Source: an uncultured Verrucomicrobiota bacterium (GTDB lineage: Bacteria; Verrucomicrobiota; Verrucomicrobiia; Verrucomicrobiales; V1-33). From it: a DNA stretch of 64,000 bases. Below the pieces are notes generated by a model, which had not been told where the DNA came from, searched no databases, and saw only the letters and a program-made list of their open reading frames with translations. The position numbers and the translations under genes are program-made. The DNA lies in the NCBI GenBank assembly GCA_942492905.1, contig OW818657.1, positions 5,918,188-5,982,187 of the forward strand. The letters are read 5' to 3'. The stretch's first letter is position 1; every line of letters begins with the position of its first letter. Below are positions 528-38,333 of this stretch, one piece after another.

Positions 528-7879
<7,352 letters not shown>

Positions 7880-7889
7880 CCTGCCCTGA

Positions 7890-9056
<1,167 letters not shown>

Positions 9057-9059
9057 TCC

Positions 9060-10475
9060 GTGTCAACCACCGCGCCACAACCCGCCGATGATGGCGTGAA
9101 TCTCCGGAAGAGCGAATACATCGGTTATGCGTTGGGCGATACCGCGTCCAACTTCTTCTTCCAGACCTTCAACATCTTCCTCACCTACTACTATGTGGAT
9201 GTGTGGGGCATCGCACCGACGGTGCTGCTCTGGCTGTTCCCGTTGGTGAGGGCATTCGGGGCGTTTGACGATGTCATCATGGGGCTGATCGCCGACCGCA
9301 CGAAAACCCGGTGGGGAAAATTCAGGCCTTATCTTCTTTTCGGAGCGATTCCCTACGGCATCTGCGGTTATCTCATGTTCCTCGGTCCGGATTTCGGGGA
9401 GACCGGAAAGATCATTTATGCCGGAGTGAGCTACGCGCTTATGATGGTCAGCTACACGGTGATCAATGTGCCCTACTCAGCCATGCTGGGAGTGATCAGC
9501 CCATCGCCGCGCACCCGCACCCTGGCCTCCACCTACCGGTTCGTCGGCGCTTTCGGAGCGGCCTTTCTCATCTCGCTTTTTGTGCGGCCCCTCGTCGAAC
9601 ATCTTGGCGCCGGGAATGAAACCCGCGGCTTCCAGCTGACCATGGCGATCTTCGCCGTGATCTCCGTGGTGCTCATTCTGATCACCTTTGCCACGACCAA
9701 GGAGCGGGTGAAACCCCCGTCGCAGCAGAAAACCAATGTCAAAGAAGAGCTGGGGGAACTTTTCAAAAACTGGCCATGGGTTGTGCTGCTTATCACGTCC
9801 ATTTTCTCCAATGCCTTTTCCGCGCTGCGTTCAGGCAGTTCGATCTTTTATTTCAAATACGTGCAGGGTTATGATTCCACGCCCGTCTGGTGGCGGCTGG
9901 ATCACACCACGCTGTTCCTCACCAGCGGAGCCCTGGGGCTGGTGCTGGGCACCCTGTGCCTCGCCCCCATCGCCCGGAAGGTGGATAAGAAATACTATGC
10001 CGCCGGCCTCAGCTTGATCACCGGCTTGTGTTTCCTGGCATTTTATTTCATCCCGAAAGGAGCCTTCTGGCCCATGGTCGCGCTGAATATGCTGGCGCAG
10101 TTTTGCGCGGGGCCCACCTCTGCCCTGACATGGGCCCTCTACGGCGATGTGGCGGACTATGGCGAGGTCAAATACGGCCGCCGCTCCACCGGCCTCATTT
10201 ATTCGGCGTCGTTGTTTTCCATCAAAGCCGGGATTCTGATCGGCGGTTTTCTGGTGCCGCTTTTCCTCGCCGGATATGGTTATGTCAAAGACGCCCCTGC
10301 ACAGACGACCCATGCCCTGCTGGGCATCGCTCTGGCCTTCTCCATCGGTCCTGCGATCTTTGCCCTGCTGAAGGCTGCGGCGCTGATAGTCTATCCACTC
10401 GATCAAAAACGCGTGGACGAAATAGAGGAATCCCTCGCCTCCCGGCGCAGGGAAACGGAAGCTCCCTCCGCATGA
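9060..10475 (+). CDS. Glycoside-pentoside-hexuronide (GPH):cation symporter, xyloside/oligosaccharide transporter type
   Basis: Polytopic membrane protein with the GPH signature GLIADRTKTRWGKFRPYLLFGAIPYG. GTG start 3 nt after the preceding stop. Its TGA overlaps the GH43 ATG (ATGA at 10472-10475). Confidence 0.85.
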   Translation: MSTTAPQPADDGVNLRKSEYIGYALGDTASNFFFQTFNIFLTYYYVDVWGIAPTVLLWLFPLVRAFGAFDDVIMGLIADRTKTRWGKFRPYLLFGAIPYGICGYLMFLGPDFGETGKIIYAGVSYALMMVSYTVINVPYSAMLGVISPSPRTRTLASTYRFVGAFGAAFLISLFVRPLVEHLGAGNETRGFQLTMAIFAVISVVLILITFATTKERVKPPSQQKTNVKEELGELFKNWPWVVLLITSIFSNAFSALRSGSSIFYFKYVQGYDSTPVWWRLDHTTLFLTSGALGLVLGTLCLAPIARKVDKKYYAAGLSLITGLCFLAFYFIPKGAFWPMVALNMLAQFCAGPTSALTWALYGDVADYGEVKYGRRSTGLIYSASLFSIKAGILIGGFLVPLFLAGYGYVKDAPAQTTHALLGIALAFSIGPAIFALLKAAALIVYPLDQKRVDEIEESLASRRRETEAPSA

Positions 10476-12130
10476 CCATCCGCAATCCTATCCTGCCTGG
10501 TTTCAATCCCGACCCGTCCATCGTGCGGGTGGGGGAGGATTATTACATCGCCACGTCCACCTTCGAGTGGTTTCCCGGGGTGCAGATTCATCACTCACGC
10601 GACCTTGTGAACTGGCGGCTCCTCACGCGTCCCCTGCGGCGGGCCAGCCAGCTCAACATGCTGGGCACGCCTGATTCCTGCGGCGTCTGGGCTCCCTGCC
10701 TGACCTATGCCGATGGCCTGTTCTGGCTGATCTACACGGACGTGAAGCGCTTTGGCCGCATGAGTGTGGCCGGGGCCAGCGGGTCGTCCATGCGGGATTT
10801 TCACAACTACCTGGTCACCTGCCCGGAGATCGATGGCGAATGGTCTGAACCTGTGCCGCTCAACAGCAGCGGATTTGATCCATCTCTTTTCCATGACGAC
10901 GATGGCAGAAAATACCTGCTCAACATGCTCTGGGACCACCGTGCGGGCCACAACCGCTTTGCCGGCATTTTGCTGCAGGAATATTCCACTGAGGAGCAGC
11001 GATTGATCGGTGAGCGGCGGATCATTTTCCATGGCACGGAACTGGGATTCACCGAAGCTCCGCATCTCTACAAACGCGATGGCTGGTATTACCTCCTTAC
11101 GGCGGAGGGCGGCACCTTTTGGGGCCACGCCGTCACCATGGCCCGGTCCCGCGACATTGCCGGTCCCTATGAGCTGCATCCTGACAATCCCCTGCTGACC
11201 TCCCGGGACCGCCCGGATGCCGTGCTCCACCGCGCCGGTCACGCCGATCTGGTCGAGACTCCCGCTGGCGAAACCTACCTGGTTTGCCTCGCCGGGCGCC
11301 CGCTGCCTAACCGGGGCCGGTGTACGCTGGGGCGCGAAACGATCATTCAAAAGATGCGTTGGCATGCGGATGGCTGGCTGCGCACCCTGGATGGCGGCAG
11401 CCTGCCCACATTGGAAACGCCGGCGCCGGATCTGCCAGCGCATCCGTTTCCAACAGCACCTGCGCGGGATGACTTCGACTCGCCGCACCTCGGTGTCGAT
11501 TATCAATGGCTGCGCACGCCGCATCCGGAGGAAATCTTCAGTCTCACTGCCCGGCCCGGCTTTCTTCGACTAACAGGACGCGAGACGCTCGGCAGTCTCT
11601 TCACGCAGGCCCTGGTGGCCCGCCGCCAGCAAGCGCATTGTTTTACGGCGGCGACGGTCATCGGGTTCGAGCCTGACCATTTCCAACAACTCGCGGGCTT
11701 GGTCTGTTACTACAGCAGCACGAAGTTCCATTACCTGCATCTTACCCACAGCGACGCCGCTGGAAAACATCTCCGCGTCATGTCCTGCGTGCCGGATTCC
11801 CCGCAGGCCGACTCCTTCACAGCGCCCATTCCAATTCTGCCAGGACGGCCCGTGCACCTTCGCGTGGAAGTGGACTTTGAGCGGCTCCGGTTCGGCTATC
11901 GGGTGGAAGGTGTGCACGACACCTGGCAATGGCTTCCCGAATCCTTCGATGCCAGCATTTTATCGGACGAATGCAATGCTCCCGGTCACGCCAGCTTCAC
12001 CGGCAACTTCCTCGGCATGGCCTGTCAGGATCTTTCCGGCACGCGAAAGGCTGCCGACTTTGATTCCTTTTACTACGCAGAACGGCCATTTGCCTCCGGG
12101 CTCAACTCCAACCCCCTGACTTTCCTATGA
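10472..12130 (+). CDS. GH43 beta-xylosidase / alpha-L-arabinofuranosidase
   Basis: MTIRNPILPGFNPDPSIVRVGEDYYIATSTFEWFPGVQIHHSRDLVNW is a classic GH43 N-terminus. There is a C-terminal beta-sandwich region. The ORF-track start at 10028 is an upstream in-frame extension overlapping the transporter; ATG 10472 is in frame and coupled. Confidence 0.9.
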   Translation: MTIRNPILPGFNPDPSIVRVGEDYYIATSTFEWFPGVQIHHSRDLVNWRLLTRPLRRASQLNMLGTPDSCGVWAPCLTYADGLFWLIYTDVKRFGRMSVAGASGSSMRDFHNYLVTCPEIDGEWSEPVPLNSSGFDPSLFHDDDGRKYLLNMLWDHRAGHNRFAGILLQEYSTEEQRLIGERRIIFHGTELGFTEAPHLYKRDGWYYLLTAEGGTFWGHAVTMARSRDIAGPYELHPDNPLLTSRDRPDAVLHRAGHADLVETPAGETYLVCLAGRPLPNRGRCTLGRETIIQKMRWHADGWLRTLDGGSLPTLETPAPDLPAHPFPTAPARDDFDSPHLGVDYQWLRTPHPEEIFSLTARPGFLRLTGRETLGSLFTQALVARRQQAHCFTAATVIGFEPDHFQQLAGLVCYYSSTKFHYLHLTHSDAAGKHLRVMSCVPDSPQADSFTAPIPILPGRPVHLRVEVDFERLRFGYRVEGVHDTWQWLPESFDASILSDECNAPGHASFTGNFLGMACQDLSGTRKAADFDSFYYAERPFASGLNSNPLTFL

Positions 12131-13413
12131 AACCCGTCACAAAACTAGTCCGCAGCCTCCTCCTTCCCGCCGTCCTGGTCAGCTCCCTGTTCGCGGCGGA
12201 CGGCCCGGTTACTCTGAAGGATGCCTACGCGCCTCACTTCAAAATAGGAACCTGCATCAACCGCAGTGTCGCCACGGGCCAGGGTGGGCGGCGGAGTGAG
12301 GACCAGGTCAAAGCGGACATCGCCCTGGTGAAGGCGCAGTTCAATCAGGTGGTGGCGGAGAATGAAATGAAGTGGATGAGCCTGCATCCCCGGGCGGGGA
12401 AGGATGGTTATGACTGGACCGCCGCGGACGCCTTTGTGGAGTTCGGAACCAAAAACAATATGGAAATGGCCGGGCACACGCTCGTGTGGCACAGTCAAAC
12501 TCCCAATTGGGTTTTTGAGGGCACCTTTCTGCCGCCGGGTGCCGCGGAAAAACAGAATCCTCCCGCTGCCGAAAGCACCCCGCCGGCGCCACCAGCGCCA
12601 ACGCCGCCGAACGGCGGACCTCCCAGCACCCGGCGCGGACCCGGCGGATTTCCCGGCTTCCGCCCCTTCGATCTCAATGGCCCCCGTGCCACCCGCGAGG
12701 AATTGCTCGAACGCATGCGTGAACACATTCATACCGTGGTGGGCCGGTACAAAGGTAAGATCAAGGTGTGGGACGTGGTGAACGAAGCCATTTCCGATGG
12801 CGGGGATGAGGTCCTGCGGAAGTCCCCGTGGTCCGTCATCATCGGGCCGGACTTTATTGAAAAGGCCTTTGAGTTTGCCCATGAGGCCGATCCAGACGCC
12901 ATCCTCCGCTACAACGACTATGGACTGGAGAACCCGAAGAAGCGCCAAAAACTCATCACCCTCATCAAAGGGCTGCAGGAAAAGAAGATTCCCGTCATGG
13001 CCATCGGCACCCAGGCGCATCTCAATGTCTCCGTGACTTTCGACATCATGGACCAGTCACTGGCGGAAATGAAGACGCTCGGTCTTCCTATCGACGTCAC
13101 GGAACTGGACGTGAACGGAGCCATGGGCGGTCAGGGAGGGTTCGGCGCGGACGTCGCGGGCAATGCCGCAGCCACGGACGGAGGACTGGTCGCCGAGGCT
13201 GACAAAAAACTGACCGAAGCCTACACCGCCGTATTCAAAGCCTTCCTCAAACACAAGGATGCCGTAAAAGTAGTAACCTTCTGGGGCCCCAACGATGCCA
13301 ACTCATGGAGGGGCCGCGCCCGCCCGCTGCTCTTTAATGGAGACAGCAAGCCAAAGCCCGCCTTCGATGCCGTCATTAAACTCGCCACGGAAAATGCGCC
13401 CAAAGCCCCGTAA
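12127..13413 (+). CDS. GH10 endo-1,4-beta-xylanase (secreted) with an internal Pro-rich insertion
   Basis: Signal peptide. GHTLVWHSQTPNWVF, WDVVNEA (acid/base Glu), IDVTELDV (nucleophile Glu). ATGA overlap with the GH43 stop. Confidence 0.9.
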   Translation: MKPVTKLVRSLLLPAVLVSSLFAADGPVTLKDAYAPHFKIGTCINRSVATGQGGRRSEDQVKADIALVKAQFNQVVAENEMKWMSLHPRAGKDGYDWTAADAFVEFGTKNNMEMAGHTLVWHSQTPNWVFEGTFLPPGAAEKQNPPAAESTPPAPPAPTPPNGGPPSTRRGPGGFPGFRPFDLNGPRATREELLERMREHIHTVVGRYKGKIKVWDVVNEAISDGGDEVLRKSPWSVIIGPDFIEKAFEFAHEADPDAILRYNDYGLENPKKRQKLITLIKGLQEKKIPVMAIGTQAHLNVSVTFDIMDQSLAEMKTLGLPIDVTELDVNGAMGGQGGFGADVAGNAAATDGGLVAEADKKLTEAYTAVFKAFLKHKDAVKVVTFWGPNDANSWRGRARPLLFNGDSKPKPAFDAVIKLATENAPKAP

Positions 13414-14310
<897 letters not shown>

Positions 14311-14421
14311 TGCGGTAAATGCCGGAAAACTTCTCCCTCCACCTCGCGCCCGACGTGGCGCGGGGCCGGCGCCGGCGCCTGATCCCAACTCCCCCATCAT
14401 CTCCCTTCCCTATCATTCAAG

Positions 14422-16992
14422 ATGAAATACCTTCTGCCGGTTGTCTTAACTCTACTGCTGCCTTTGCTCTGTCACGCGCAGGATCCGTCCCGGTTTGAAA
14501 AAGAAGTGTTGGCTGCGGGATTGAGTGACCCGCTGCAACTGGACATCGCCCAGGACGGACGGGTGTTTTTCATTGAGCGGAAGGGAGCGGTGAAAGTGTG
14601 GGAGCCGGCATCGCGGAGCACGGTGACGATTGGCGATTTCCCCTGCGCCACGGGTGGGGATGCGGGGGGGCTGGGGCTGACCCTGGCGCGGGATTTCCAA
14701 AAGAGCGGTCATCTTTATACGATCCGCGTGCCCGCGCAGGGCGAGGCGAAGCTGTTGTTGGCGCGCTTCAAACTCGAAGGCGGGAAGCTCGTGGACGAGC
14801 ATGCGGTTCTGACCATTCCGCTGGGCAAAGGGCGGGACCAGTCCCACTGCGGTGCGGGGCTTGCCTGGGATGCGCAGGGCAACCTCATCATCAGCGTCGG
14901 AGACAATATGGCGCCGCAGGATGTGCCGGCGGTTCATGCCGAAGACGCCGGGCGCGATGCGCGAGGCACGGCGGGAAATTCGCAGGAGTTGCGCGGGAAG
15001 ATTCTGCGTATCACCCCGCAGGCGGACGGCTCCTACGGCATCCCTTCTGGCAATCTTTTCCCCAATCCCCAACAAGGACGACCGGAGGTGTTCGCGTTTG
15101 GGGTGCGGAATCCATTTCGCGTCACTTGCGATGCGAAGACGGGTTTTATCATCTGGGGAGACGTGGGGGGCAACGTGCGCACGGAACTCGATCTGGGCCC
15201 GGAGGGTTTTGATGAGTTGAACGTGACGCGGGAACCGGGGTTTTTCGGCTGGCCGTTCTGTGCCGGGCCCAACCTGCCGTGGCGTCCGTTTGATCCGAAG
15301 ACGCAGAAGCCGGCCGGAGCGTTTTTTGATCCGGCAAAACTCATCAATGACAGCCGCTTCAACACGGGGCTGAAGGAGTTGCCGCCCGCCCGGCCTGCCG
15401 CTTTTTATTACGACAATCTGGCCTCGGAAGAGTGGCCGTTTGCCGGCAGCGGCGGGCGGAGCATCACCGGCGGCGTGGTTTACCGGAAGCCGGAGGCAGC
15501 GGGGGAATCGCGCCTGCCCGACGAATGGGAGGGGGCCTATCTTTTCTGCGAATGGATGCGCAACTGGGTGGCGGCGGCACGCTTCGACGGGGACGGCAAG
15601 CTGGTGAAGGCGGAGCGGGTGCTGGAAGGGTTGACGTTCAAGCGGCCGGCCGATTTAAAGATCGGGCCGGACGGTGCCCTCTACCTCGCGGAGTGCGGCG
15701 ACCAGTGGACCGGAAATACCGATAGCCGGATCACACGCGTGACTTACTGGCGCGGGAATCGGCCACCCGAAGCCGTGGTAGGTGCGGACCGCGTCGCCGG
15801 CAAGCTGCCGCTGGAGGTCGCGTTCGATGCCGCAGCCTCGCGTGACGCGGACGGCGGGGAGTTGAAATTCACTTGGGATTTTGGAGATGGAAAGCAGGCC
15901 GGAGGCGTCAAAACCAGCCACGTTTTCACCACAGCGGGCGTGTGGCCCGTAACGCTCACGGTCACGGATGCACAGGAGACCGCCGCCACGGCCGTGGTGA
16001 ATATCGCAGCCGGAAATGAAGCGCCCCGGGTGAAGTTTGCCACTCCGCTGGACGGCGGATTTTTGGATGGGAAGGAAATCGCCTGGACCGTCAACGCCAC
16101 GGATGCGGAGGATGGCGCGGTGCCGGCGGAGCGACTGCTGATTCAGCTGGAGAAACGCGACCGGGCAGCGACGGAAGAGACGCATCCCGGGCTGGCGCTG
16201 ATGAAAGGCACCACTTGTTTTGCCTGTCACAATGCCACGGATCAAAGCGCGGGCCCGCCCTATGCCGCCATCGCTGCGAAGTATGCCGCAGATTCCGGGG
16301 CGCGGGAAACATTGCAGGCGAAAATCATCCAGGGAGGGGCCGGGGTGTGGGGCCCATTGCCCATGCCGCCGCATCCGCAACACACGCCGGCCGAGGCGGC
16401 ACTGATGGTGGATTGGGTGTTGTCCTTGGCTCAACGCCGGATCACCGCGCTGCCCGCCGCCGCTGAGGGCAAAGCTGCCGTGCCGGCGACCGTGGGCGGG
16501 TTCGGCCGCGCGGACAATACCGTGATGTTCCTGACCGCCGCCACGACGGACCAGGGGGCCGGCGTGCTGCCACCGCTGCGGGGTTCCACCGAGGTGATGC
16601 TGCGCAGCCGGCGTCAGCGCGCCGCGTGCTTCGACCACGGTGAAAAAGCCGCCGCCCAGGACAATCTCGATCAGGGCGGACTGGTGGCGCGCATTCATCC
16701 CGGCGGCTGGATCGGGTTTGACCGCATCCGGCTGCAGGACTTCGGGCTCCTGAAACTGACTGCCTGGCCGCAAGGCGCGGCCCCACTCACCGTTAGCATT
16801 CTCACCGGTGGCCAGGAGCTGGCGCGGCAAACCCTGCCGCCCGGCCCGGCTGCCGGCCGGCCGCCTCCGGAATTCGTGTTCCCCATGCCGTCCGCCACCG
16901 AAGCCGGCCCGCCTCAGCAGGTGCGGATCAAATTGGAAGGCTCTGCCGGGAGTGTGCTGGAGATAATGTGGGTGGAATTCCAGCGGCGTTAG
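14422..16992 (+). CDS. PQQ-type soluble sugar dehydrogenase (GSDH beta-propeller) + PKD domain + cytochrome c + C-terminal CBM6-like domain
   Basis: FEKEVLAAGLSDPLQLDIAQDGRVFFIERKGAVKVW and VFAFGVRNPFRVTCDAKTGFIIWGDVG are GSDH-like. WDFGDG marks a PKD domain. Heme motif CFACH at nt 16216-16230, with GVWGPLPMPPH. The C-terminal segment GGWIGFDRIRL...VLEIMWVEF is CBM-like. Confidence 0.85.
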   Translation: MKYLLPVVLTLLLPLLCHAQDPSRFEKEVLAAGLSDPLQLDIAQDGRVFFIERKGAVKVWEPASRSTVTIGDFPCATGGDAGGLGLTLARDFQKSGHLYTIRVPAQGEAKLLLARFKLEGGKLVDEHAVLTIPLGKGRDQSHCGAGLAWDAQGNLIISVGDNMAPQDVPAVHAEDAGRDARGTAGNSQELRGKILRITPQADGSYGIPSGNLFPNPQQGRPEVFAFGVRNPFRVTCDAKTGFIIWGDVGGNVRTELDLGPEGFDELNVTREPGFFGWPFCAGPNLPWRPFDPKTQKPAGAFFDPAKLINDSRFNTGLKELPPARPAAFYYDNLASEEWPFAGSGGRSITGGVVYRKPEAAGESRLPDEWEGAYLFCEWMRNWVAAARFDGDGKLVKAERVLEGLTFKRPADLKIGPDGALYLAECGDQWTGNTDSRITRVTYWRGNRPPEAVVGADRVAGKLPLEVAFDAAASRDADGGELKFTWDFGDGKQAGGVKTSHVFTTAGVWPVTLTVTDAQETAATAVVNIAAGNEAPRVKFATPLDGGFLDGKEIAWTVNATDAEDGAVPAERLLIQLEKRDRAATEETHPGLALMKGTTCFACHNATDQSAGPPYAAIAAKYAADSGARETLQAKIIQGGAGVWGPLPMPPHPQHTPAEAALMVDWVLSLAQRRITALPAAAEGKAAVPATVGGFGRADNTVMFLTAATTDQGAGVLPPLRGSTEVMLRSRRQRAACFDHGEKAAAQDNLDQGGLVARIHPGGWIGFDRIRLQDFGLLKLTAWPQGAAPLTVSILTGGQELARQTLPPGPAAGRPPPEFVFPMPSATEAGPPQQVRIKLEGSAGSVLEIMWVEFQRR

Positions 16993-17158
16993 AACAAAGC
17001 GATTTCCACAGAGCGTGGGGGAGGGGCGAGGATGAGACATCGTTGGAATCCGACGGCAACACCTACAACTGCTCCTACCTCCAGAGTGTGGAAGTACGAG
17101 AGGTGAATAGCCTGGTAAGGGCCGCTGGAGTTTGGCTCCGGATTGTCGGATTTATGGT

Positions 17159-17761
17159 CTAATAAACCTCAGGCAATAGCCCCGCCTTTTTCTGCTCATA
17201 CCGACAATTCTTAGCTCCCTCAGGTTTGGTATTTTGTCTTGTTCGGGTGTTAAGGAGGTCAGGCAGCGTTTCAGGAAACCCCATCCTGATCCGGTATGCT
17301 TCAGGCTCATGTCGCTTAAGATTTCTGTAAATTGAAATTTCCTGCCGCCGCCAGCGGGTCGCGTCCGAATCATCAAGGCTTGCGACACGGATTAATCTGC
17401 GGCCCTCTGCGCAAAGTGGGTTGATGGTGCCATTCTTAGCTACGGACACGAGGGTGCCGTAGCCCAGCTTGCAGGGATCTGGCATCCGGCCCGCTGATTT
17501 CCAACTATTGCAAGTCGTGCAGGCAAGAACGAGGTTAGAATATGTGGTATCCAGGTCCCTGCGTTGCGAGCGTGGGACCAAATGTTCGACGACCCAAATG
17601 GCTCTCCGACGCTCCCACGTTTCCCGACGCAGACAATAGACGCAGCGGAAGTCGAACTCATCCCGAAGCCAATCCTTGTAGTCGGCATAGTCGGAGTAGC
17701 CGGACGGACCGTGTTTACGACAGTGGGGCTGGGTGGGATACAGAAACGGCTCAGGACTCAT
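17159..17761 (-). CDS. HNH endonuclease (200 aa)
   Basis: HNH/Zn-finger core CVYCLRRETWERRRAIWVVEHLVPRSQRRDLDTTYSNLVLACTTCNSWK (nt ~17498-17644). The start overlaps the methyltransferase stop by 4 nt (ATGA on the minus strand at 17758-17761). Confidence 0.85.
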   Translation of the reverse strand: MSPEPFLYPTQPHCRKHGPSGYSDYADYKDWLRDEFDFRCVYCLRRETWERRRAIWVVEHLVPRSQRRDLDTTYSNLVLACTTCNSWKSAGRMPDPCKLGYGTLVSVAKNGTINPLCAEGRRLIRVASLDDSDATRWRRQEISIYRNLKRHEPEAYRIRMGFPETLPDLLNTRTRQNTKPEGAKNCRYEQKKAGLLPEVY

Positions 17762-20505
17762 TCACTCCATTTGCCCTCCCGTTTGAGTCTTTCGATCAGA
17801 GCCTCCTGTTCCTCAAATGGGAAAGGGGCCACCAGTCGCCGCCTCAACAGGGCAAAGTGTTGGAGCTGCTCCAATTCTCCGACCTCGGTCTTCTTGAGCT
17901 TGCCTTTATACTCCAAATCAATGAGGTCCAAGCGCCGGGCATTGGTTGCTTCCCAATCCGCCGTGATGGTCAGCAGTTCCTGCAGGGTCTGTGCTCCATC
18001 GAATCCGGCGGGATAATATTCAGTCTGATGAAATGGCACACCCTCCCGTTCGTAGCCTGTAAAGAAGTCTAGTAGTTTCCGTTCCAGTTCCTGCGGCAGT
18101 TTGTAGAGTGCCAGAACGGCGGCATCCAGCCGCCAGTGAAGGTGCTTTAGGTAGTCATCATGGTCTGGAGGATTTTCGTTCAGTTCCAAGCCGGGCAATT
18201 CTGCCGAGTCCAATCTCCTTGCTGCCTGGACAGAGCGTTTTGATGTTCTGCCGGGTTTCAATGATCCGCTGGCTGCGTCGCGATACTGCTTTGCCAACTT
18301 CTCGATATGATCCTGTTGGGCCTCGGTAATTGTTGGTAACGGGAGCTGTTCGACCGTGCCGGAAAGGATATCCCGCTTGCTGGAGTAGGATTTCGTAAAC
18401 GCGTTTGCCAAAGGTGAATTGAGAATAGCCCATAGACAAATTGGTATTATTTGAGTCTCCTCGGTTTCCTGTGATTTAACAGGGCGAATTACAAGAAACC
18501 GACCTCGGGTGGGGTGACCGATTGCATCAAAGTATGCGAGATTTCTCCACGGGCCTCGGCTGATTGGGGAGTGGTTCATAACCACCTTTGGTATGCCAGT
18601 TTCACATCCTGCAACGGCTCGATCTATCGCTGCATCGTCAAACAGAAGCCATTGAAGATGGGGTAATTGATGGGAAAATCCAGTCTGCTTTAGATCATAG
18701 AAACCAAGGCGATACCCCGATTGTTTCGTGCTTACACGCTTGGGTTTTCCCTTGGGAAACGTGGGATCCGACTCTGCCTTATAAATGAATCCTTGTCCGG
18801 CGGCAGCAGCCTTTCCGAGCTTGTTGAAGCGGGAACAAAAATCCCAGACATCCACCAAATCCGGCACAAGCATTGAGACAGCATCGTCGGCCAGCATTCC
18901 CGCAGCCTCCCGCTCCTGCGTCACGGTTGGCTTACCCTTGGTCTCAAACTCCGGCAGTCCGCCATCCCACACATGGTTGATTCGCACAGGCACCGTGGAT
19001 CTGTTCTTTCCGGACAATTTGCGACCGATGATTATAGCGGTTTCAACATCAGCTTTTTCGAAGACTTTGTCAGGAAGGCGCAGGATTTCCTGCCACTCGA
19101 AGTGTCCCAGCAAGTCTTTCCGCAAAGCGGTAGCCTTTTTGGAATCAAGAATCGTCTGTGGCATGATGTAGGCCACCAAGGTGCCGGGCTTGGCATTCAG
19201 ACTAATCCTGCGGAGTAACTCGGCGGCCTGACCAACATGGAAAAGTTCGTCACCTGCGCTGGGCCGGGTTTCGAACGGGGGATTTGAAATGATGATATCA
19301 GCGTTTGCGAGGCGGGACTCCATCCGTCCATTTCGGAACATATCCCCATCATCCAACTCCCAGCCGTTTGGATTCGGGATATCCGCCAGCGTCAGCGAAA
19401 GGCGAGCAACTTCGCGGGCGAAGTCATCGGTCTCCGCGCCGACCAGCCGGGATTGAAGCCACGCATGTCTTTCCACATCATTCATGGCGATGCAGGGCTT
19501 CATGCCGGAGAATAGCCTGAGCATCGCCACCAAGAACGGAGCATGACCGCAACCTGGCTCGTAAACTTTGCGGCGTGACTCCGGCTGTGCTTCGACCCAA
19601 GGCGTGAGCCGTTGCACGATGTAATTCACAAGCCACGCTGGAGTGCTGTGAGTTCCGAGCGCTTTGCGGGTCTCCTTGGTGATAAGCACGTTTTCATAAA
19701 CGCGGGCCAGCGTTTCCGTGCTTACCAGCCGCAGTGAGCTGTGGGAGTTGAGAATATCCGCAGCGCCCGTCAGGGCTTTGCGGCGACGTTGCGAAAGCGC
19801 GTGCTGCGGTCGCGATCCATAGTGCCGCGCCACGCGTGAAAAGACATTGTCCAAATCCTCCAAATCAAGTGTTTTGAAGTTTTGTACTTGTTTGTCGTGG
19901 AGCAGGCGGGCCGCGAGGAGCCAGAAGTTCGCTTGGACCAGCCATTGAGCATCCATTTCCTCCAATTCCTTGAAGGCAGCCATGTTCAGCTTTTCGCGGG
20001 TGGCAAGAATCATGCTCTCTACCAAGCAGCAGAGCTGCGCGCTGGATTCAGATTCCACCATCTCCAGCAGGCCGATATCCACGAAACTCAGCTGCCGACT
20101 AATATCGAGGCGTGCGGTTGTCTTGGCGCGATAAATAGACCGTGGATCAAGCTTCGAACGGTAGGCTTGGAAAAAAGCATCCAAGGAGCCATTATCAGGA
20201 TCCCATAGGCGGCAAGGTTGAGCGGGGGTCAATTGCCAGACGCTCCAGTGTTGGCCTGAGCCAAGAAAGGCAAGAGGTGCTCCAGTATCGCGCCCCACAT
20301 TCAAAAAGGCACTTGGGTCATTCTGATCGGGCGCGGCCACCACACACGCGGTCCGCGTGTCAAATGGGCGGTGTGAGAAAGCCAGTAGCGGCACCGTGCT
20401 TTTTCCAAAAAGAAAATCCGGGGCAAGATTTTCGCGGGCAAATCCACACCGCTCGAGATGCGAGCGAAGCTGACGGTCATCGAACGCTGGACGGGAAAAT
20501 GACAA
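17758..20505 (-). CDS. Gamma-class N6-adenine DNA methyltransferase with target-recognition domain (Eco57I/MmeI-like size and layout), 915 aa
   Basis: SAM motif I VYEPGCGHAPFLV. Catalytic motif IV IIISNPPFE (NPPF at nt 19273-19284). TRD-like WAILNSPLANAF. The uncharacterised N-terminal ~250 aa and C-terminal ~150 aa remain unassigned. The start is a TTG at 20505 and is uncertain. Confidence 0.85.
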   Translation of the reverse strand: MSFSRPAFDDRQLRSHLERCGFARENLAPDFLFGKSTVPLLAFSHRPFDTRTACVVAAPDQNDPSAFLNVGRDTGAPLAFLGSGQHWSVWQLTPAQPCRLWDPDNGSLDAFFQAYRSKLDPRSIYRAKTTARLDISRQLSFVDIGLLEMVESESSAQLCCLVESMILATREKLNMAAFKELEEMDAQWLVQANFWLLAARLLHDKQVQNFKTLDLEDLDNVFSRVARHYGSRPQHALSQRRRKALTGAADILNSHSSLRLVSTETLARVYENVLITKETRKALGTHSTPAWLVNYIVQRLTPWVEAQPESRRKVYEPGCGHAPFLVAMLRLFSGMKPCIAMNDVERHAWLQSRLVGAETDDFAREVARLSLTLADIPNPNGWELDDGDMFRNGRMESRLANADIIISNPPFETRPSAGDELFHVGQAAELLRRISLNAKPGTLVAYIMPQTILDSKKATALRKDLLGHFEWQEILRLPDKVFEKADVETAIIIGRKLSGKNRSTVPVRINHVWDGGLPEFETKGKPTVTQEREAAGMLADDAVSMLVPDLVDVWDFCSRFNKLGKAAAAGQGFIYKAESDPTFPKGKPKRVSTKQSGYRLGFYDLKQTGFSHQLPHLQWLLFDDAAIDRAVAGCETGIPKVVMNHSPISRGPWRNLAYFDAIGHPTRGRFLVIRPVKSQETEETQIIPICLWAILNSPLANAFTKSYSSKRDILSGTVEQLPLPTITEAQQDHIEKLAKQYRDAASGSLKPGRTSKRSVQAARRLDSAELPGLELNENPPDHDDYLKHLHWRLDAAVLALYKLPQELERKLLDFFTGYEREGVPFHQTEYYPAGFDGAQTLQELLTITADWEATNARRLDLIDLEYKGKLKKTEVGELEQLQHFALLRRRLVAPFPFEEQEALIERLKREGKWSE

Positions 20506-20591
20506 AGTGGAGAAGCAAGGAGAAGCCTTTAACGAATAGGTTTTAGAAACAAATTTGCGAGCAGGAAATTGAAGGTAATTCGGAATCCTGG

Positions 20592-20626
20592 AAGAAAAAA
20601 GCCGCCCCGGATGACTCCGGGGCGGC
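20592..20626 (-). terminator. Rho-independent terminator downstream of ppdK
   Basis: On the minus strand: GCCGCCCCGG-agtcat-CCGGGGCGGC, followed by TTTTTTC. 10-bp GC stem (20601-20610 / 20617-20626), 27 nt after the ppdK stop. Confidence 0.75.
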
Positions 20627-20653
20627 TTCGTGATTTAAGCTGATGGAAGCGGA

Positions 20654-28856: not shown

Positions 28857-29231
28857 CTATTTGTTCTTCAGGGCGTCCCGGATTTCCGTCAGGAGTTTCA
28901 CCTCCTCGGACGGTCCGGCGGGCGGCGGGGCCGCTTCGGCCTTCTTCACCCGGGCCATCAAAATGTTGTAGGGCTTGACGATCACAAAGAAAATCACAGC
29001 GGCCGTAATGAGAAAGCCGATGATCGTGTTGATCACCAGACCCAAATCAAAGATCCAGAGTTTCAGCGAAACATCAGGGTCTCCGCCGATCAGCCCCAGG
29101 ATCGGTTTGACAATCCCGTTGGTGAAGCCATCCACAATTTTGCCGAAAGCTGCGCCGATGAGGACCCCTGTGGACAGGGAAACGACGTCGCCTTTCAGGA
29201 TGAATTTCTTGAACTCTTCTAGCATTTGCAT
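28857..29231 (-). CDS. mscL: Large-conductance mechanosensitive channel
   Basis: MLEEFKKFILKGDVVSLSTGVLIGAAFGKIVDGFTNGIVKPILG is canonical MscL. The start was chosen at ATG 29231 (or 29225) rather than the ORF-track 29264. Confidence 0.9.
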   Translation of the reverse strand: MQMLEEFKKFILKGDVVSLSTGVLIGAAFGKIVDGFTNGIVKPILGLIGGDPDVSLKLWIFDLGLVINTIIGFLITAAVIFFVIVKPYNILMARVKKAEAAPPPAGPSEEVKLLTEIRDALKNK

Positions 29232-29318
29232 AGGATTGATATGGATTCGAATGGGATGGAACAACGGCGCAGAAGGCTATCCATTACGGAGCCCGCATCC
29301 TTCCGCAAAGCCAAAAGA

Positions 29319-30557
29319 TTAAAACTTCAATTCCTGTCCAAAAATGTGCCGTGACGCTTCCGCCACATCCTTGTCGCCGCGTCCGCTTAGATTCACGATG
29401 ATGATCTGATCCTTGCCCATGGTCGGCGCGATCTTCTTGGCATAAGCCAAACCGTGGGCCGTTTCGAGGGCGGGGATAATGCCTTCCATGCGGGAAAGTT
29501 CCTGGAAGGCGTCCAAGGCTTCGGCATCGGTAGCGTAGGTGTAGTTGATACGGCCTTTGGCTTGATAATAGGCATGCTCCGGACCCACCGCCGCGTAGTC
29601 CAGACCGGCGCTGACACTGTGGGTGAGCATGATCTGCCCATCGGAATTGGCGAGGAGCATCGTCTTGGTGCCCTGCAGCACGCCCAGTTTGCCACCTTCA
29701 AAGCGGGCGGCATGACGCCCTTCCACGATGCCTTCCCCCCCCGCTTCCACGCCGGTCATTTTCACACCGGCGTCGGATAGGAAAGGATGGAACAGGCCGA
29801 TCGCATTGCTGCCGCCGCCCACGCAGGCAATCAGCAGATCAGGCAGGCGTTCTTCCCGTTCGAGGATCTGTTTCCTCGCCTCCACTCCAATGACACGATG
29901 GAAATCCCTCACAATCATCGGGAACGGATGCGAGCCCAGGGCCGAGCCCAGAATGTAATGCGTGTCGCGCACGTTGGTGACCCAATCACGCATGGCTTCG
30001 TTCACCGCTTCTTTCAAGGTCGCCTGCCCGGCCGTGACGGCACGGACTTCAGCTCCGAGGAATTTCATGCGCGCTACATTCAGCGCCTGGCGCCGCATGT
30101 CTTCCGCGCCCATGTAAATCACGCATTCAAACCCAAACCGGGCACACACCGTGGCCGTGGCCACCCCATGCTGGCCGGCACCGGTCTCGGCGATGATCCG
30201 CTTTTTGCCGAGGCGGCGGGCGATCAGGATCTGGCCCATCGCGTTGTTGATCTTGTGGGCCCCGGTGTGGAGCAGGTCTTCGCGCTTCAGGTAAATCTTC
30301 GCGCCACCCAGTTTTTCCGTCCAGCGTTCCGCAAAATACAGGGGAGTAGGCCGGCCCACATATTCCCGCAGCAGATAATCCAGTTCCGACTGGAAAGCCG
30401 GATCGGCCTTGGCGCGGTCGTATTCCGCCGACAGCTCATTCAGCGCAAACATCAGCGTTTCCGGCACAAACATGCCGCCAAAGGCCCCAAAATGGCCATG
30501 GGCGTCGGGCAAAGTCTGAGGGGCAGGGAGGATCTCATTCATGGGAAAGGTTTTCAT
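29319..30557 (-). CDS. trpB: Tryptophan synthase beta chain
   Basis: [27 protein letters not shown] (PLP lysine), GGGSNAIG. The start is probably ATG 30557 or 30542. Confidence 0.95.
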
Positions 30558-35056: not shown

Positions 35057-37090
35057 ATGTCCCAGACTCCACCGTCCCTTCCGGGTACGCCACCGCCGCG
35101 GGCCCGCCTGCGTGATGATGCCTGGCTGGCGCCCTACCTGCCGGATCTTGATCGCCGCCGGGACAAAACCACCGGTCTGCTCCGCCAACTCACGGAAAAC
35201 GGCCGCGTCTCCCTCCCGGAATTCTCCTTGGGCCACCACTACTATGGATTGCACCGCACCAGTAGCGGCTGGGTTTTCCGCGAGTGGGCTCCCCATGCCA
35301 GCGCCATTTTCCTGACGGGAGATTTCTGTGGCTGGCAGCAACTCCCGGAACTGGCGCTGCAGCGGCTCAATGCCCATGGAGACTGGGAACTGCAGTTGCC
35401 CCTGTCCACCCTGACCCACGGCCAGCATTACCGGCTCGACGTCTTCTGGCCCGGCGGCTGGGGAGACCGCATCCCCGCGTGGTCCCAGCGGGTCGTCCAG
35501 GATCCCCAATCCCTCATTTTCACCGCCCAGGTCTGGGACGTGCCGCCCTACGTCTGGAAAAACTCCCGGCCTCCCCACCTGCCGGACCGGCCGCTCCTCA
35601 TTTACGAAGCCCACATCGGCATGGCGCAGGAGACGCCGAAAGTCGGCTCCTACCGCGAGTTTCAGGACCTCATCCTTCCCCGCATCGTCGCCGCCGGCTA
35701 CAACGCGGTGCAGATCATGGGCATCCTTGAGCACCCCTACTACGGCTCCTTCGGTTATCATGTCAGCAGCTTCTTTGCCCCCAGCAGCCGCTTTGGGACC
35801 CCGGAGGAATTCAAGGAACTGGTCGACACTGCCCACGGCCTCGGTCTCGCTGTGATCATCGACCTGATCCATTCGCACAGCGTCAAAAACGAAAGTGACG
35901 GCATCTCGCGTTTTGATGGCTCTCTCTATCAATACTTCCACGAAGGCGACCGCGGCGAGCACCCGGCCTGGGACAGCCGCTGCTTCGACTACGGCAAGCC
36001 CGCCGTCCTGCATTTCCTGCTCTCCAATTGCCGGTGCTGGACCGAGGACTATCAACTCGACGGCTTCCGCTTCGACGGCATCACCTCCATGCTCTACTTT
36101 GACCATGGTCTCGGCAAGGCCTTTACCGGTTACGACGACTACTTCCATCCCGGGATTGATGAGGACGCCCTCGCCTACCTCGCCCTCGCCAATCAACTGA
36201 TCCACACCCTGAACCCCGGGGCCCTCACCATCGCCGAGGATGTGTCAGGCATGCCTGGCCTCGCGGCGCCCGTGGAGGAGGGAGGCGCCGGCTTCGACTA
36301 CCGCCTCGCCATGGGGGTGCCGGATCTGTGGGGCAAGCTCGGCTCCGACACCCCGGACGAAGCATGGAATGTCGAAACCCTCTGGCATGAACTCACCAGC
36401 CGCCGCGCCGAGGAACGGGTCATCAGTTATGTCGAAAGTCATGACCAGGCCATCGTCGGCGGGAAAACCTTTATTTTCCGCCTGCTGGATGCCGCCATCT
36501 ACACCGACATGGCCCTGTCCACCACCAACCCGCACGTGGACCGCGGCATCGCCCTCTGGAAGCTCGCCCGCCTCCTCACCCTCACCACTGCGGCTCATGG
36601 TTATCTGAATTTCATCGGGAATGAGTTCGGCCACCCGGAGTGGGTGGACTTCCCCCGCGCCGGCAACCAGTGGTCCTATCACTACGCCCGCCGCCAGTGG
36701 TCCCTGCGCGACAATCCGGATCTGAAATACCACGCGCTCGGCGATTTCGATGCCGCCATCATGCACCTGGTGGGCGACCCCGCCATCTTTGCTGCCCCGC
36801 CTTACAAACACTACAGCCACGTCAGCGACCAGGTGATGGTCATCCAACGCGGCGATCTTCTGATCGCCTTCAACTTCCACCCCGTCCGCAGCTTCACGGA
36901 CCATGCGGTTCCCGCCCCGGCTGGATCATGGGAACTGGTGCTGGATACGGACGAGCCACGTTTCGCCGGTCTCGGCCGGCTCGCCCTCCACCAGCGCTAT
37001 CAAACCATCCCCGTGGACGGGTCGCCACAACTGCTCCTCTACCTCCCCGCCCGATGTGCCCTCGTACTGGCCCGTTCCCCCTCCGGCTGA
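35057..37090 (+). CDS. glgB: 1,4-alpha-glucan branching enzyme, eukaryote-type (GH13_8-like)
   Basis: SFGYHVSSFFAPSSRFGTPEEFKELVDTAHGLGLAVIIDLIHSHSVKN, GFRFDGITSMLY, IAEDVSGMP, YVESHDQA. These blocks resemble eukaryotic GBE rather than classical bacterial GlgB. Confidence 0.9.
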   Translation: MSQTPPSLPGTPPPRARLRDDAWLAPYLPDLDRRRDKTTGLLRQLTENGRVSLPEFSLGHHYYGLHRTSSGWVFREWAPHASAIFLTGDFCGWQQLPELALQRLNAHGDWELQLPLSTLTHGQHYRLDVFWPGGWGDRIPAWSQRVVQDPQSLIFTAQVWDVPPYVWKNSRPPHLPDRPLLIYEAHIGMAQETPKVGSYREFQDLILPRIVAAGYNAVQIMGILEHPYYGSFGYHVSSFFAPSSRFGTPEEFKELVDTAHGLGLAVIIDLIHSHSVKNESDGISRFDGSLYQYFHEGDRGEHPAWDSRCFDYGKPAVLHFLLSNCRCWTEDYQLDGFRFDGITSMLYFDHGLGKAFTGYDDYFHPGIDEDALAYLALANQLIHTLNPGALTIAEDVSGMPGLAAPVEEGGAGFDYRLAMGVPDLWGKLGSDTPDEAWNVETLWHELTSRRAEERVISYVESHDQAIVGGKTFIFRLLDAAIYTDMALSTTNPHVDRGIALWKLARLLTLTTAAHGYLNFIGNEFGHPEWVDFPRAGNQWSYHYARRQWSLRDNPDLKYHALGDFDAAIMHLVGDPAIFAAPPYKHYSHVSDQVMVIQRGDLLIAFNFHPVRSFTDHAVPAPAGSWELVLDTDEPRFAGLGRLALHQRYQTIPVDGSPQLLLYLPARCALVLARSPSG

Positions 37091-37212
37091 AGTCCTGGGT
37101 CCGGCAGAAAAAATATCTCCCCGACTGAAATCCAGGACCATAGATTCCGAGTATTATCTGAAGACTTGCCCGTCTCCCTCAAGTCCATCCCAACCTGCCA
37201 CCAGCCAAAACC

Positions 37213-37656
37213 ATGAGCGATCCTACACCACCCAGCATTCCTCCGGTTCCAGAAGAAACGTCCTATACCCCTCCAGCAGGGCAAATCATTCCGCCGCCCC
37301 CGGTCACCGAGACAGGGCTGACCCCCAATGATAAAACAATGGGGATGCTGAGCCACCTCATCGCGCTGGCCGGTTTTCTGATTCCCTTCGGAAGCATCAT
37401 CGGGCCCTTGGTCATCTGGTTGACCCAGAAGGATAAATCCGCCTATCTCGACTATCATGGCAAGGAATCCCTGAACTTCCAGATTACGATCGGCATTGCG
37501 GTGGTGTGCTGCATGGTGCTCAGCCTCATACTGATCGGAATTCCCATGCTTTTTGCCGTGGGGATCTATGGTTTGGTCATGACTATTATTGCCGGAATCA
37601 AAGCGAACGAAGGGGTGCGATACCGTTATCCCTACACGCTCCGTCTCGTAAAATAA
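37213..37656 (+). CDS. DUF4870-family small membrane protein
   Basis: [55 protein letters not shown] matches the DUF4870 pattern. Pro-rich N-terminus. Confidence 0.7.
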
Positions 37657-37667
37657 CTGATTCCGCC

Positions 37668-37696
37668 GGGGCAGGCGATTCTGCCCCGTTTTTTCT
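37668..37696 (+). terminator. Rho-independent terminator (first of a tandem pair)
   Basis: GGGGCAG-gcgatt-CTGCCCC followed by GTTTTTTC, 12 nt after the DUF4870 stop. Confidence 0.6.
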
Positions 37697-37697
37697 T

Positions 37698-37738
37698 GCA
37701 GGCCCGGCGCTCCAGCGCCGGGCCTGCATTTTTTTTGC
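37698..37738 (+). terminator. Rho-independent terminator (second of a tandem pair)
   Basis: GCAGGCCCGGCGC-tcca-GCGCCGGGCCTGC (13-bp stem) followed by ATTTTTTTT. Confidence 0.7.
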
Positions 37739-37847
37739 AATCATCGGCAACCGTCCCACGGAGGAGTGGCGTTGCTGCCTCTGCAGGCCACCGGCGTGTG
37801 CCGGACCGGTCAGCAGATTCAACAAAAAACCCAAAATCAGCCTCCTT

Positions 37848-38333
37848 ATGAAACTCCTCAGCACCTCCCTGTTTGCCCTCTCCGTCATCCTGTCCCCCCT
37901 CGCCGCCCGGGCGGAAGAACCCACCAAAAACGTGGTGGAAATCGCCGCCGGCAACAAGGACTTCTCCACCCTGGTCGCTGCCGTAAAAGCCGCCGGTCTC
38001 GCCGAAACCCTGAGCGGCAAAGGCCCCTTCACCATTTTCGCCCCGACCAATGAGGCCTTCGCGAAACTTCCCGCCGGCACCGTGGAAGACCTGCTCAAGC
38101 CTGAAAACAAGGCCAAGCTCACCGCGATCCTGACCTATCACGTTGTCGCCGGAAAAGTGATGGCCGCTGATGTGAAGGCCGGGAAGGTCAAGACCGTCAA
38201 CGGAGCCGAGGCCACTATCGCCACCGATGGCGGCGTCACCATCGAAAAAGCCAAGGTCGTGAAAACCGACATCGCCGGCACCAACGGCGTGATCCACGTC
38301 ATCGATACCGTGATCCTTCCTCCTGCCAAATAA
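37848..38333 (+). CDS. Fasciclin (FAS1) domain protein, secreted
   Basis: Signal peptide [65 protein letters not shown]...TYHVV...[13 protein letters not shown]. The ORF-track start at 37506 is a spurious upstream extension across the terminators. Confidence 0.9.

Follow-up and report, generated by a model that had tools for sequence, protein, structure and literature searches.

Within a window of 64,000 nucleotides (nt) of contig OW818657.1, from an uncultured Verrucomicrobiota bacterium, segment 16993-20653 holds a cassette of two genes, one encoding a large DNA methyltransferase of 915 amino acids (aa) and the other a small HNH nuclease of 200 aa. A preliminary description of this DNA had portrayed the segment as an AT-richer, horizontally acquired island of just these two genes, and the two-gene content is borne out by Pfam, which finds N6_Mtase in the first protein (60 bits, cut-off 20.4) and HNH in the second (36 bits, cut-off 21.4). 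The pair is a solid candidate for an unnamed defence module of the restriction-modification type with an unusual split architecture, and its function is best read as restriction-modification or a related anti-phage activity. On balance, we favour the view that the cassette was acquired horizontally and forms a self-contained restriction-modification-type module of two genes, split and type IIG-like.

The evidence that the two genes belong together comes from 82 loci, 80 of them obtained in a metagenome scan with the family alignment and two (L001 and L002) added to these; homologous loci are referred to here by L numbers. At least 500 nt is available downstream of the methyltransferase in 75 of the 82, with methyltransferases that are 36-72% identical to that of the window, and in all 75 an HNH homologue lies directly downstream on the same strand. 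The junction between the two genes is usually overlapping, most often by 4 nt. In the window, the genes also share a 4-nt overlap, ATGA, which joins the methyltransferase stop codon to the ATG of the HNH gene, and they are translationally coupled. All-against-all clustering of the flanking open reading frames (ORFs) in the 82 loci revealed no third recurrent gene, only antisense shadows of the pair. Methyltransferase and HNH are an obligate unit, and their genes are adjacent, co-oriented, and co-inherited, as in the broad definition of a type II system. The HNH match is limited to the C-terminal part in three loci, L082, L094, and L131. In L131 (8768-8995), the last 75 HNH codons remain, the catalytic half is deleted, and the 900-aa methyltransferase is intact, a decay like that of restriction-modification systems. 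In L094 (8505-8883), damage affects both genes: the methyltransferase has a frameshift near residue 840, and all but the C-terminal part of the HNH gene is lost. Hundreds of full-length methyltransferase homologues of 840-970 aa exist; Verrucomicrobiota and Planctomycetota account for most of the named ones and Armatimonadota for some. In bacteria of soil and freshwater, the pair is strictly conserved. Correlated evolution of the two proteins was considered as a further line of evidence and was dropped, since a few close pairs account for the Pearson correlation (r = 0.84) and the Spearman value (0.19) is not significant.

The genes and the domains of their products are as follows.

17159-17761, minus strand: HNH nuclease gene, 200 aa (Pfam HNH, 7.5e-9)
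17498-17644, minus strand: HNH catalytic core with zinc-finger cysteines, residues 40-88, of the pattern CxxC ... EH ... N ... CxxCN..K
17758-20505, minus strand: methyltransferase gene, 915 aa, TTG start (ORF list, homologues, AlphaFold2 model)
17761-17955, minus strand: three-helix C-terminal tail, residues 851-915, a putative HNH-partner module
17956-18435, minus strand: C-terminal helical domain, residues 691-850, with a disordered variable loop at 753-777 (model confidence, secondary structure, conservation profile)
18436-19005, minus strand: beta-rich target-recognition-like domain, residues 501-690 (secondary structure, Foldseek alignments)
19006-19719, minus strand: gamma-class N6-adenine methyltransferase domain, residues 263-500 (Pfam N6_Mtase, 2.6e-16)
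19273-19284, minus strand: catalytic motif IV, NPPF, residues 408-411 (N408 and P409 invariant, P410 and F411 at least 90% conserved, in 61 homologues)
19534-19560, minus strand: S-adenosylmethionine (SAM)-binding motif I, EPGCGHAPF, residues 316-324 (E316, G320, H321, and F324 invariant in 61 homologues)
19720-20100, minus strand: helical connector, residues 136-262, with the motif QLxFVDxGLLxxVExE (model secondary structure, conservation profile)
20101-20505, minus strand: N-terminal alpha/beta domain, residues 1-135, with a PD-(D/E)XK-like fold that lacks the catalytic motif

The deposited gene call for the methyltransferase, P0001 (774 aa), begins at an internal GTG (V142), omitting residues 1-141 (window 20083-20505). 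The 915-aa form is favoured because homologues of 880-967 aa span 96-100% of it, from residue 1, and because a TTG is present at 20505. The AlphaFold2 model of this form has a mean predicted local distance difference test (pLDDT) score of 89.6, and its full-length Foldseek matches in the PDB are BpuSI, BrxX/PglX, DrdV, and MmeI (E from 1e-18 to 1e-13); the structures of CamA and M.BseCI match the methyltransferase and recognition regions. Residues 263-500 form the best-conserved domain, with sequence matches to EcoKI M, StySJI M, and M.BseCI, and both the SAM-binding and the catalytic motifs of a DNA methyltransferase are intact. Variability within the protein is highest in the recognition-like domain (column entropy of 2.13 bits).

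When modelled alone (pLDDT 87.9), the N-terminal domain gives Foldseek matches to HsdR (3h1t, E 0.017) and BpuSI (3s1s, E 0.021) and then to Cas4, Hjc, and DrdV, matches that are weak but consistently to nucleases. Its invariant residues are F43, D49, R51, G75, P121, R126, A127, and K128. No conserved D...(D/E)xK was found in either 61 or 24 aligned sequences, and the sole invariant acidic residue, D49, is Ser in a sister clade whose partner gene encodes a PIN domain (discussed below). Given the lack of a conserved D...(D/E)xK, the domain is probably a nuclease fold that no longer cuts and is thus catalytically dead. An hhalign comparison with the MmeI-like N-terminus gave no signal (probability 0.5%). 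The profile of the domain finds 467 clusters at 50% identity (1.84 billion representatives) and is family-specific: with few exceptions, the domain is N-terminal in these clusters, in full-length proteins of approximately 830-945 aa.

In the HNH protein, the HNH core occupies the N-terminal half, and the conserved C-terminal half (residues ~95-200) matches nothing. Homologues number 157 and are also of approximately 200 aa. Residues C40, C43, H60, N76, C81, C84, N85, and K88 are invariant among 36 of the homologues, and the HNH residues of the nuclease active site are intact. PtuB-type profiles of PADLOC match the HNH core only (down to 3e-12), there is a weak match to the HNH domains of Cas9 in the PDB, and the matches in PHROGs are to generic phage HNH families.

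The composition of the segment sets it apart from its surroundings. Its G+C content is 53.9% versus 61.0% across the rest of the window, and among all 3661-nt intervals taken in 50-nt steps, the minimum, 53.8%, is found at 16951-20611, approximately 4.3 standard deviations (SD) under the mean of 60.7% (SD 1.6%). The most extreme stretch of the window thus lies where the preliminary description had placed it, and the three spot counts given there proved exact on recounting (38.3%, 46.7%, and 61.7% G+C for the 60-nt lines that start at 18421, 19021, and 21001, respectively). The 60-nt lines of the segment differ in G+C from those outside it (Mann-Whitney p = 3e-14), and the 1-kb bin 18001-19000 has 51.8% G+C. 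Moderately low 1-kb bins occur elsewhere, at 1-1000 (55.8%), 9001-10000 (56.7%), 29001-30000 (56.2%), and 37001-38000 (57.2%), none of them near 51.8%. The differing codon usage that had been suspected was also seen: G+C at third codon positions (GC3) is 0.58 in the methyltransferase gene and 0.59 in the HNH gene, versus 0.82 in ppdK, 0.75 in the 856-aa gene on the left, and 0.71-0.75 in the GH10, SASA, and infC genes. Furthermore, A/T-ending codons that are common in the cassette genes are nearly unused by the flanking genes (AGA, 0.11 vs 0.01; TCA, 0.21 vs 0.04; ATA, 0.12 vs 0.03).

Comparison with relatives was made at 12 loci of Chthoniobacter-like Verrucomicrobiota that carry an ortholog of the left-hand gene (60-88% identity). 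Neither the methyltransferase, the HNH protein, nor ppdK was found within 10 kb downstream of this ortholog in any of the 12. The closest locus, L013, is collinear with window positions 4489-17022 by tblastx and is then fully divergent, and nucleotide identity to L013 and L009 fades ~35 nt past the TAG of the left gene (16990-16992), near 17025-17030. In these two loci, which are the closest (85-88% identity in the flanking protein), the first downstream gene encodes a TOTE conflict-system protein; in remoter relatives, assorted metabolic genes lie downstream of the ortholog. A TOTE gene takes the place of the pair in the closest relatives, which makes this junction a variable slot. The pair is not ancestral here: conservation of the two genes at this position across the clade would have spoken for an ancestral origin, and the pair is missing at all 12 loci. 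The horizontal acquisition proposed in the preliminary description is thus upheld by the deviation in G+C and GC3 together with this absence. Nevertheless, relatives in which the xylan operon directly abuts ppdK, for which the same description had called, were found in no case, and consequently a clean insertion between two ancestral neighbours cannot be claimed. With no ppdK within 10 kb in the 12 relatives, the right boundary of the segment could not be mapped by comparison; it falls somewhere in 20506-20597. The TOTE genes (L013:12725-15655 and L009:5472-6632) encode an AEP primase-like domain, a ResIII/DEAD helicase, and DUF559.

Elsewhere, the pair sits among unrelated housekeeping genes (L001, L160, and L162) or adjoins toxin-antitoxin genes and insertion sequence (IS) elements (L002 and L161). 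Among the 36 loci that have at least 4 kb of flank, 31 have a cassette that is AT-richer than its surroundings (mean G+C difference over the 36 of -3.6 points, Wilcoxon p = 6e-8). These unrelated contexts and the recurrent AT-richness fit repeated horizontal transfer. Of the hallmarks of a classical genomic island, the segment has the deviant composition and the absence from the site in relatives, but not the integrase or transposase, the tRNA, or the direct repeats. As had been remarked earlier, the ORF list of the window has no integrase or transposase adjoining the pair, a scan for tRNA and tmRNA found none within the 64 kb, and a repeat scan gave only chance-level direct or inverted matches of 13-15 nt, none of which bracket the segment. 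A phage origin was considered and rejected: no methyltransferase homologue was found in IMG/VR viral contigs, the matches in phage GenBank entries cover the methyltransferase core only (25% identity), and IMG/VR holds only one HNH homologue. This sole viral relative (L166:1055-1906; 37% identity, on a 90-kb contig) lies in an open frame that continues for ~80 residues beyond the match on its upstream side; a tail-like ORF was looked for in this locus and not detected. In L002 (89-5752), a unit of ~3 kb that consists of a small ORF, a phage-integrase fragment, an IS91-family Y2 transposase, and an ORF of 128-129 aa occurs twice in tandem upstream of the pair, and a ParE-type toxin-antitoxin pair (listed with the coordinates 7230-7735) directly precedes the methyltransferase.

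A clue to how the two proteins may work together is provided by the C-terminal tail of the methyltransferase. The neighbourhoods of four HNH homologues on longer contigs were examined. One homologue (L165) follows a full methyltransferase; the other three follow a small ORF (125, 131, and 160 aa as called in L163, L164, and L167, respectively), which overlaps the start of the HNH gene by 4 nt. The pair seen in L167 is also that of L168, whose shorter contig ends inside the upstream ORF. The last ~60 residues of the small ORFs are homologous to methyltransferase residues 851-915 (tblastn, 2e-6 and 9e-6). Conversely, the methyltransferases of the sister clade, which have ~29% identity over 86-91% of the length and are 828-830 aa long, possess all of the domains, including the N-terminal one and the connector motif QLxFVDxGLLxxVExE, but the tail is missing, and the next gene encodes a PIN domain, often an RNase, instead of HNH. 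This clade is large and occurs in Alphaproteobacteria, on Rhizobiaceae plasmids, and in Pseudomonas aeruginosa. Because the tail is present in the stand-alone HNH partners and missing in the PIN clade, it travels with the HNH protein rather than with the methyltransferase body, and on this basis, residues 851-915 may dock the HNH protein or restrain and control it. The loci concerned are the following.

L163:4627-5600, stand-alone tail-HNH module
L164:4609-5597, stand-alone tail-HNH module
L167:4522-5594, stand-alone tail-HNH module
L168:2-852, stand-alone tail-HNH module
L155:4468-7957, PIN-clade locus
L156:4974-7976, PIN-clade locus
L157:5001-7996, PIN-clade locus
L158:2401-5875, PIN-clade locus

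An identity of the small upstream ORFs as Phd/YefM-like antitoxins was considered and found no support in Pfam. Genes for TIR and protein-kinase proteins lie near the module in L163, and the module of L167 stands beside an Eco57I/MmeI-like methyltransferase, a PIN pair, and a DUF4365 gene. The PIN-clade methyltransferase is often preceded by an overlapping ORF of ~160 aa, and PADLOC models match neither this ORF nor the PIN protein. The neighbours of the PIN-clade set are an MmeI-family enzyme and a DEAD helicase in P. aeruginosa, and a Shedu SduA gene and Tn7-like genes in Agrobacterium.

In the favoured model, the methyltransferase/recognition protein would methylate an adenine in its site on host DNA, and this methylation would protect self DNA. 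The HNH protein, which has an intact active site and no evident DNA-recognition domain, would dock on the three-helix tail. On unmethylated incoming DNA, the methyltransferase/recognition module would position or license HNH cutting, and the system would in this way restrict phage or plasmid DNA. The ancestral built-in nuclease domain, in turn, would have decayed to a structural or sensing role. What favours such a split type IIG-like system is the combination of strictly conserved methyltransferase motifs with a type IIG-like architecture. Several observations nevertheless weigh against it. No Pfam, NCBIfam, or PADLOC model sees the pair as a system, and a PADLOC search with both proteins, which the preliminary description had envisaged, returned only generic methyltransferase and HNH core matches and named no system. 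The assignment of the N-terminal fold is weak (best Foldseek E 0.017, TM about 0.46). Across the family, the alignment of the recognition-like domain is free of gaps, and the domain is less variable than typical specificity domains. Furthermore, the same HNH family also occurs with a small tail-bearing protein alone, without any methyltransferase, which implies that control of the HNH protein is not intrinsically methylation-dependent, and the replacement of HNH by PIN in the sister clade fits the logic of a toxin effector better than that of site-specific restriction.

These last observations lead to the main rival hypothesis. It is rather unlikely, in our estimation, that the pair is a toxin-antitoxin or abortive infection system, in which a non-specific HNH toxin would be held by the tail, acting as a fused antitoxin, while the methyltransferase body would serve as a sensor. 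The sensed cue might be, for example, unmodified foreign DNA or phage anti-restriction proteins that target methyltransferases; infection would then free the HNH protein, and indiscriminate degradation of nucleic acid would result in cell death or arrest. The HNH relatives behind a small tail-bearing protein, with their 4-nt overlap, have the classic type II toxin-antitoxin layout, the exchange of HNH for PIN is in keeping with this hypothesis, the HNH protein is similar to PtuB, which serves as the effector in Septu and retron Ec78, and toxin-antitoxin genes adjoin the pair in L002 and L161. However, strictly conserved catalytic motifs would be needless in a mere sensor or scaffold, the architecture matches that of enzymes that direct cleavage from a recognition site, and Pfam finds no antitoxin family in the small ORFs; the loss of the nuclease in L131, with the methyltransferase kept, fits either model. 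A tentative possibility is that the pair belongs to an unrecognised modular defence class midway between restriction-modification and toxin-antitoxin or abortive infection. In such a class, a type IIG-derived methyltransferase with a dead nuclease would be the DNA-discriminating sensor, linked by a short adaptor to a swappable toxin-like effector, which would be HNH held by the tail here and a PIN nuclease in the sister clade. As the tail and HNH core also circulate by themselves as a small module of two genes, a toxin-antitoxin pair that existed beforehand would have been taken over by the methyltransferase through fusion to the antitoxin.

A chance neighbourhood of an orphan regulatory or housekeeping methyltransferase and a selfish or homing HNH gene, with no functional coupling between them, is barely credible. 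Although HNH genes are common selfish elements, the PHROGs matches are generic, and a methyltransferase can outlast a decayed HNH gene, the two genes co-occur on the same strand and overlapping in 75 of 75 loci over the whole range of 36-72% methyltransferase identity, and the tail homology connects both proteins. In addition, viral contigs have no homologue of the methyltransferase and only one of the HNH protein, and the HNH gene does not lie inside a host gene. With regard to origin, it is very unlikely that the cassette is ancestral to the lineage, with its low G+C reflecting a gene-specific constraint and its absences reflecting lineage-specific loss or rearrangement. The lack of any relative with an empty site, where the left operon would abut ppdK, the poor synteny downstream of the left gene across the genus, and the lack of an integrase, a tRNA, and direct repeats would all be compatible with this explanation, but the two closest relatives hold a different conflict gene at exactly this junction, and the closest methyltransferase homologues (60-72% identity) are metagenome proteins. 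Moreover, the named homologues span Armatimonadota, Planctomycetota, and other Verrucomicrobiota, 31 of 36 contexts show a cassette that is richer in A+T than its host, and the codon usage of the cassette is sharply deviant.

Among known systems, the type IIG/IIL enzymes BpuSI, MmeI, and DrdV come closest to the methyltransferase, having the same order of nuclease fold, helical connector, gamma-class methyltransferase, and recognition domain, and they supply the top full-length structural matches (3s1s, E 1.4e-18; 7lo5; 5hr4). Their methyltransferase/recognition module directs an otherwise non-specific nuclease, and by analogy, the same logic may apply to the cassette. However, the N-terminal domain of the window protein is without the D...(D/E)xK motif of a competent nuclease, the nuclease of the cassette is a separate, obligatory HNH protein, and there is an extra C-terminal tail. 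In addition, MmeI_N, MmeI_hel, MmeI_TRD, and MmeI_C do not match, and MmeI_Mtase reaches 19.2 bits versus a cut-off of 27. Next among the structural matches (9ewz, 8c45, and 8q56) is PglX/BrxX of bacteriophage exclusion (BREX) systems, likewise a large N6-adenine methyltransferase with a built-in recognition domain that marks self DNA within a defence system, as the window protein presumably does. Nonetheless, PglZ, BrxC, BrxL, and other BREX genes are absent from the cassette, in line with the lack of a third gene in the 82 loci, NCBIfam BREX_1_MTaseX scores 13 bits versus a cut-off of 500, the window protein is ~300 residues shorter, and its partner is a nuclease. Type III systems (Mod and Res), which together with the type IIG/IIL enzymes would be nearest to the pair in mode of action, also have two genes, and the analogy may extend to a methyltransferase that carries the recognition and a nuclease that depends on it for targeting; Res, however, is a large helicase-nuclease with PD-(D/E)XK, whereas the cassette nuclease is a 200-aa HNH protein with no ATPase.

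The HNH protein, for its part, is most like PtuB of Septu and retron Ec78, an HNH protein of ~200-220 aa that has its core at the N-terminus, binds a larger partner through its C-terminal half, and is encoded right after this partner, on which it depends; PtuB is also its best PADLOC profile match (3e-12). In the cassette, however, the partner is a methyltransferase rather than the ABC-type ATPase PtuA, the NCBIfam PtuB equivalog scores 23.3 bits versus a cut-off of 150, and the similarity is limited to the HNH core. The methylation-associated defence system (MADS) differs as well, given that NCBIfam MAD2 scores 17.5 bits versus a cut-off of 720, the PADLOC mad2 match is to the methyltransferase core only, and the cassette has no other conserved neighbours. 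An ordinary type II pair differs from the 915-aa, type IIG/PglX-like multidomain methyltransferase with its small PtuB-like HNH effector. A full-text literature search found no description of this pair. The nearest system was Ambrosia of Pseudomonas aeruginosa (AbrR, AbrA, AbrB, AbrC, and AbrD), in which an N6-adenine methyltransferase and an HNH protein are present in one anti-phage cluster (bioRxiv 10.1101/2025.09.30.679545). However, Ambrosia has five genes, including an XRE regulator, a histidine kinase-like ATPase, and a response regulator, which the cassette is without, and its HNH protein belongs to a type IV (modification-dependent) family (bioRxiv 10.1101/2025.09.30.679545).

If the favoured model is correct, the pair would represent a compact, widespread, and unnamed two-gene system, which would show how single-chain type IIG enzymes are taken apart, the built-in nuclease decaying and a small nuclease being recruited through a short tail. 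It would also give a specific case of exchange in evolution between restriction-modification and toxin-antitoxin modules, would offer a small adaptor-nuclease pair that is possibly re-targetable, and would supply a new model for defence-system finders, which now see a generic methyltransferase and a generic HNH protein. In this genome, the end of the xylan-utilisation cluster would be a variable slot that is filled by different conflict genes in close relatives.

The cassette is bordered by the following elements.

16993-17158, no strand: spacer between the convergent 856-aa gene (plus strand) and HNH gene (minus strand), which holds the left breakpoint at ~17025-17030 (ORF list)
20506-20597, minus strand: spacer of 92 nt from the ppdK terminator to the start of the methyltransferase gene, the presumed cassette promoter region (sequence)
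20598-20629, minus strand: ppdK intrinsic terminator, outside the cassette (14-bp stem with 10 G-C pairs, 4-nt loop, T run)

A promoter scan of the right-hand spacer gave nothing above chance and no consensus promoter. The 166-nt stretch on the left, which the preliminary description had called non-coding, is indeed a spacer between two convergent genes, and the ppdK terminator hairpin reported there was recovered on the minus strand at 20629-20598, with its 14-bp stem and T run; it includes a perfect 13-nt inverted repeat. The same description had placed the cassette between a xylan operon and ppdK. This placement holds for the ppdK terminator and for the GH10 xylanase and SASA esterase genes, but these two precede the immediate left neighbour (14422-16992, plus strand, 856 aa), which encodes a glucose/sorbosone-dehydrogenase-PKD-cytochrome c protein. 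In an unrelated genome, ppdK also adjoins, in divergent orientation, the small-ORF/HNH pair of L164 (1-3025), which may be a coincidence or may reflect a shared preference for the neighbourhood of ppdK.

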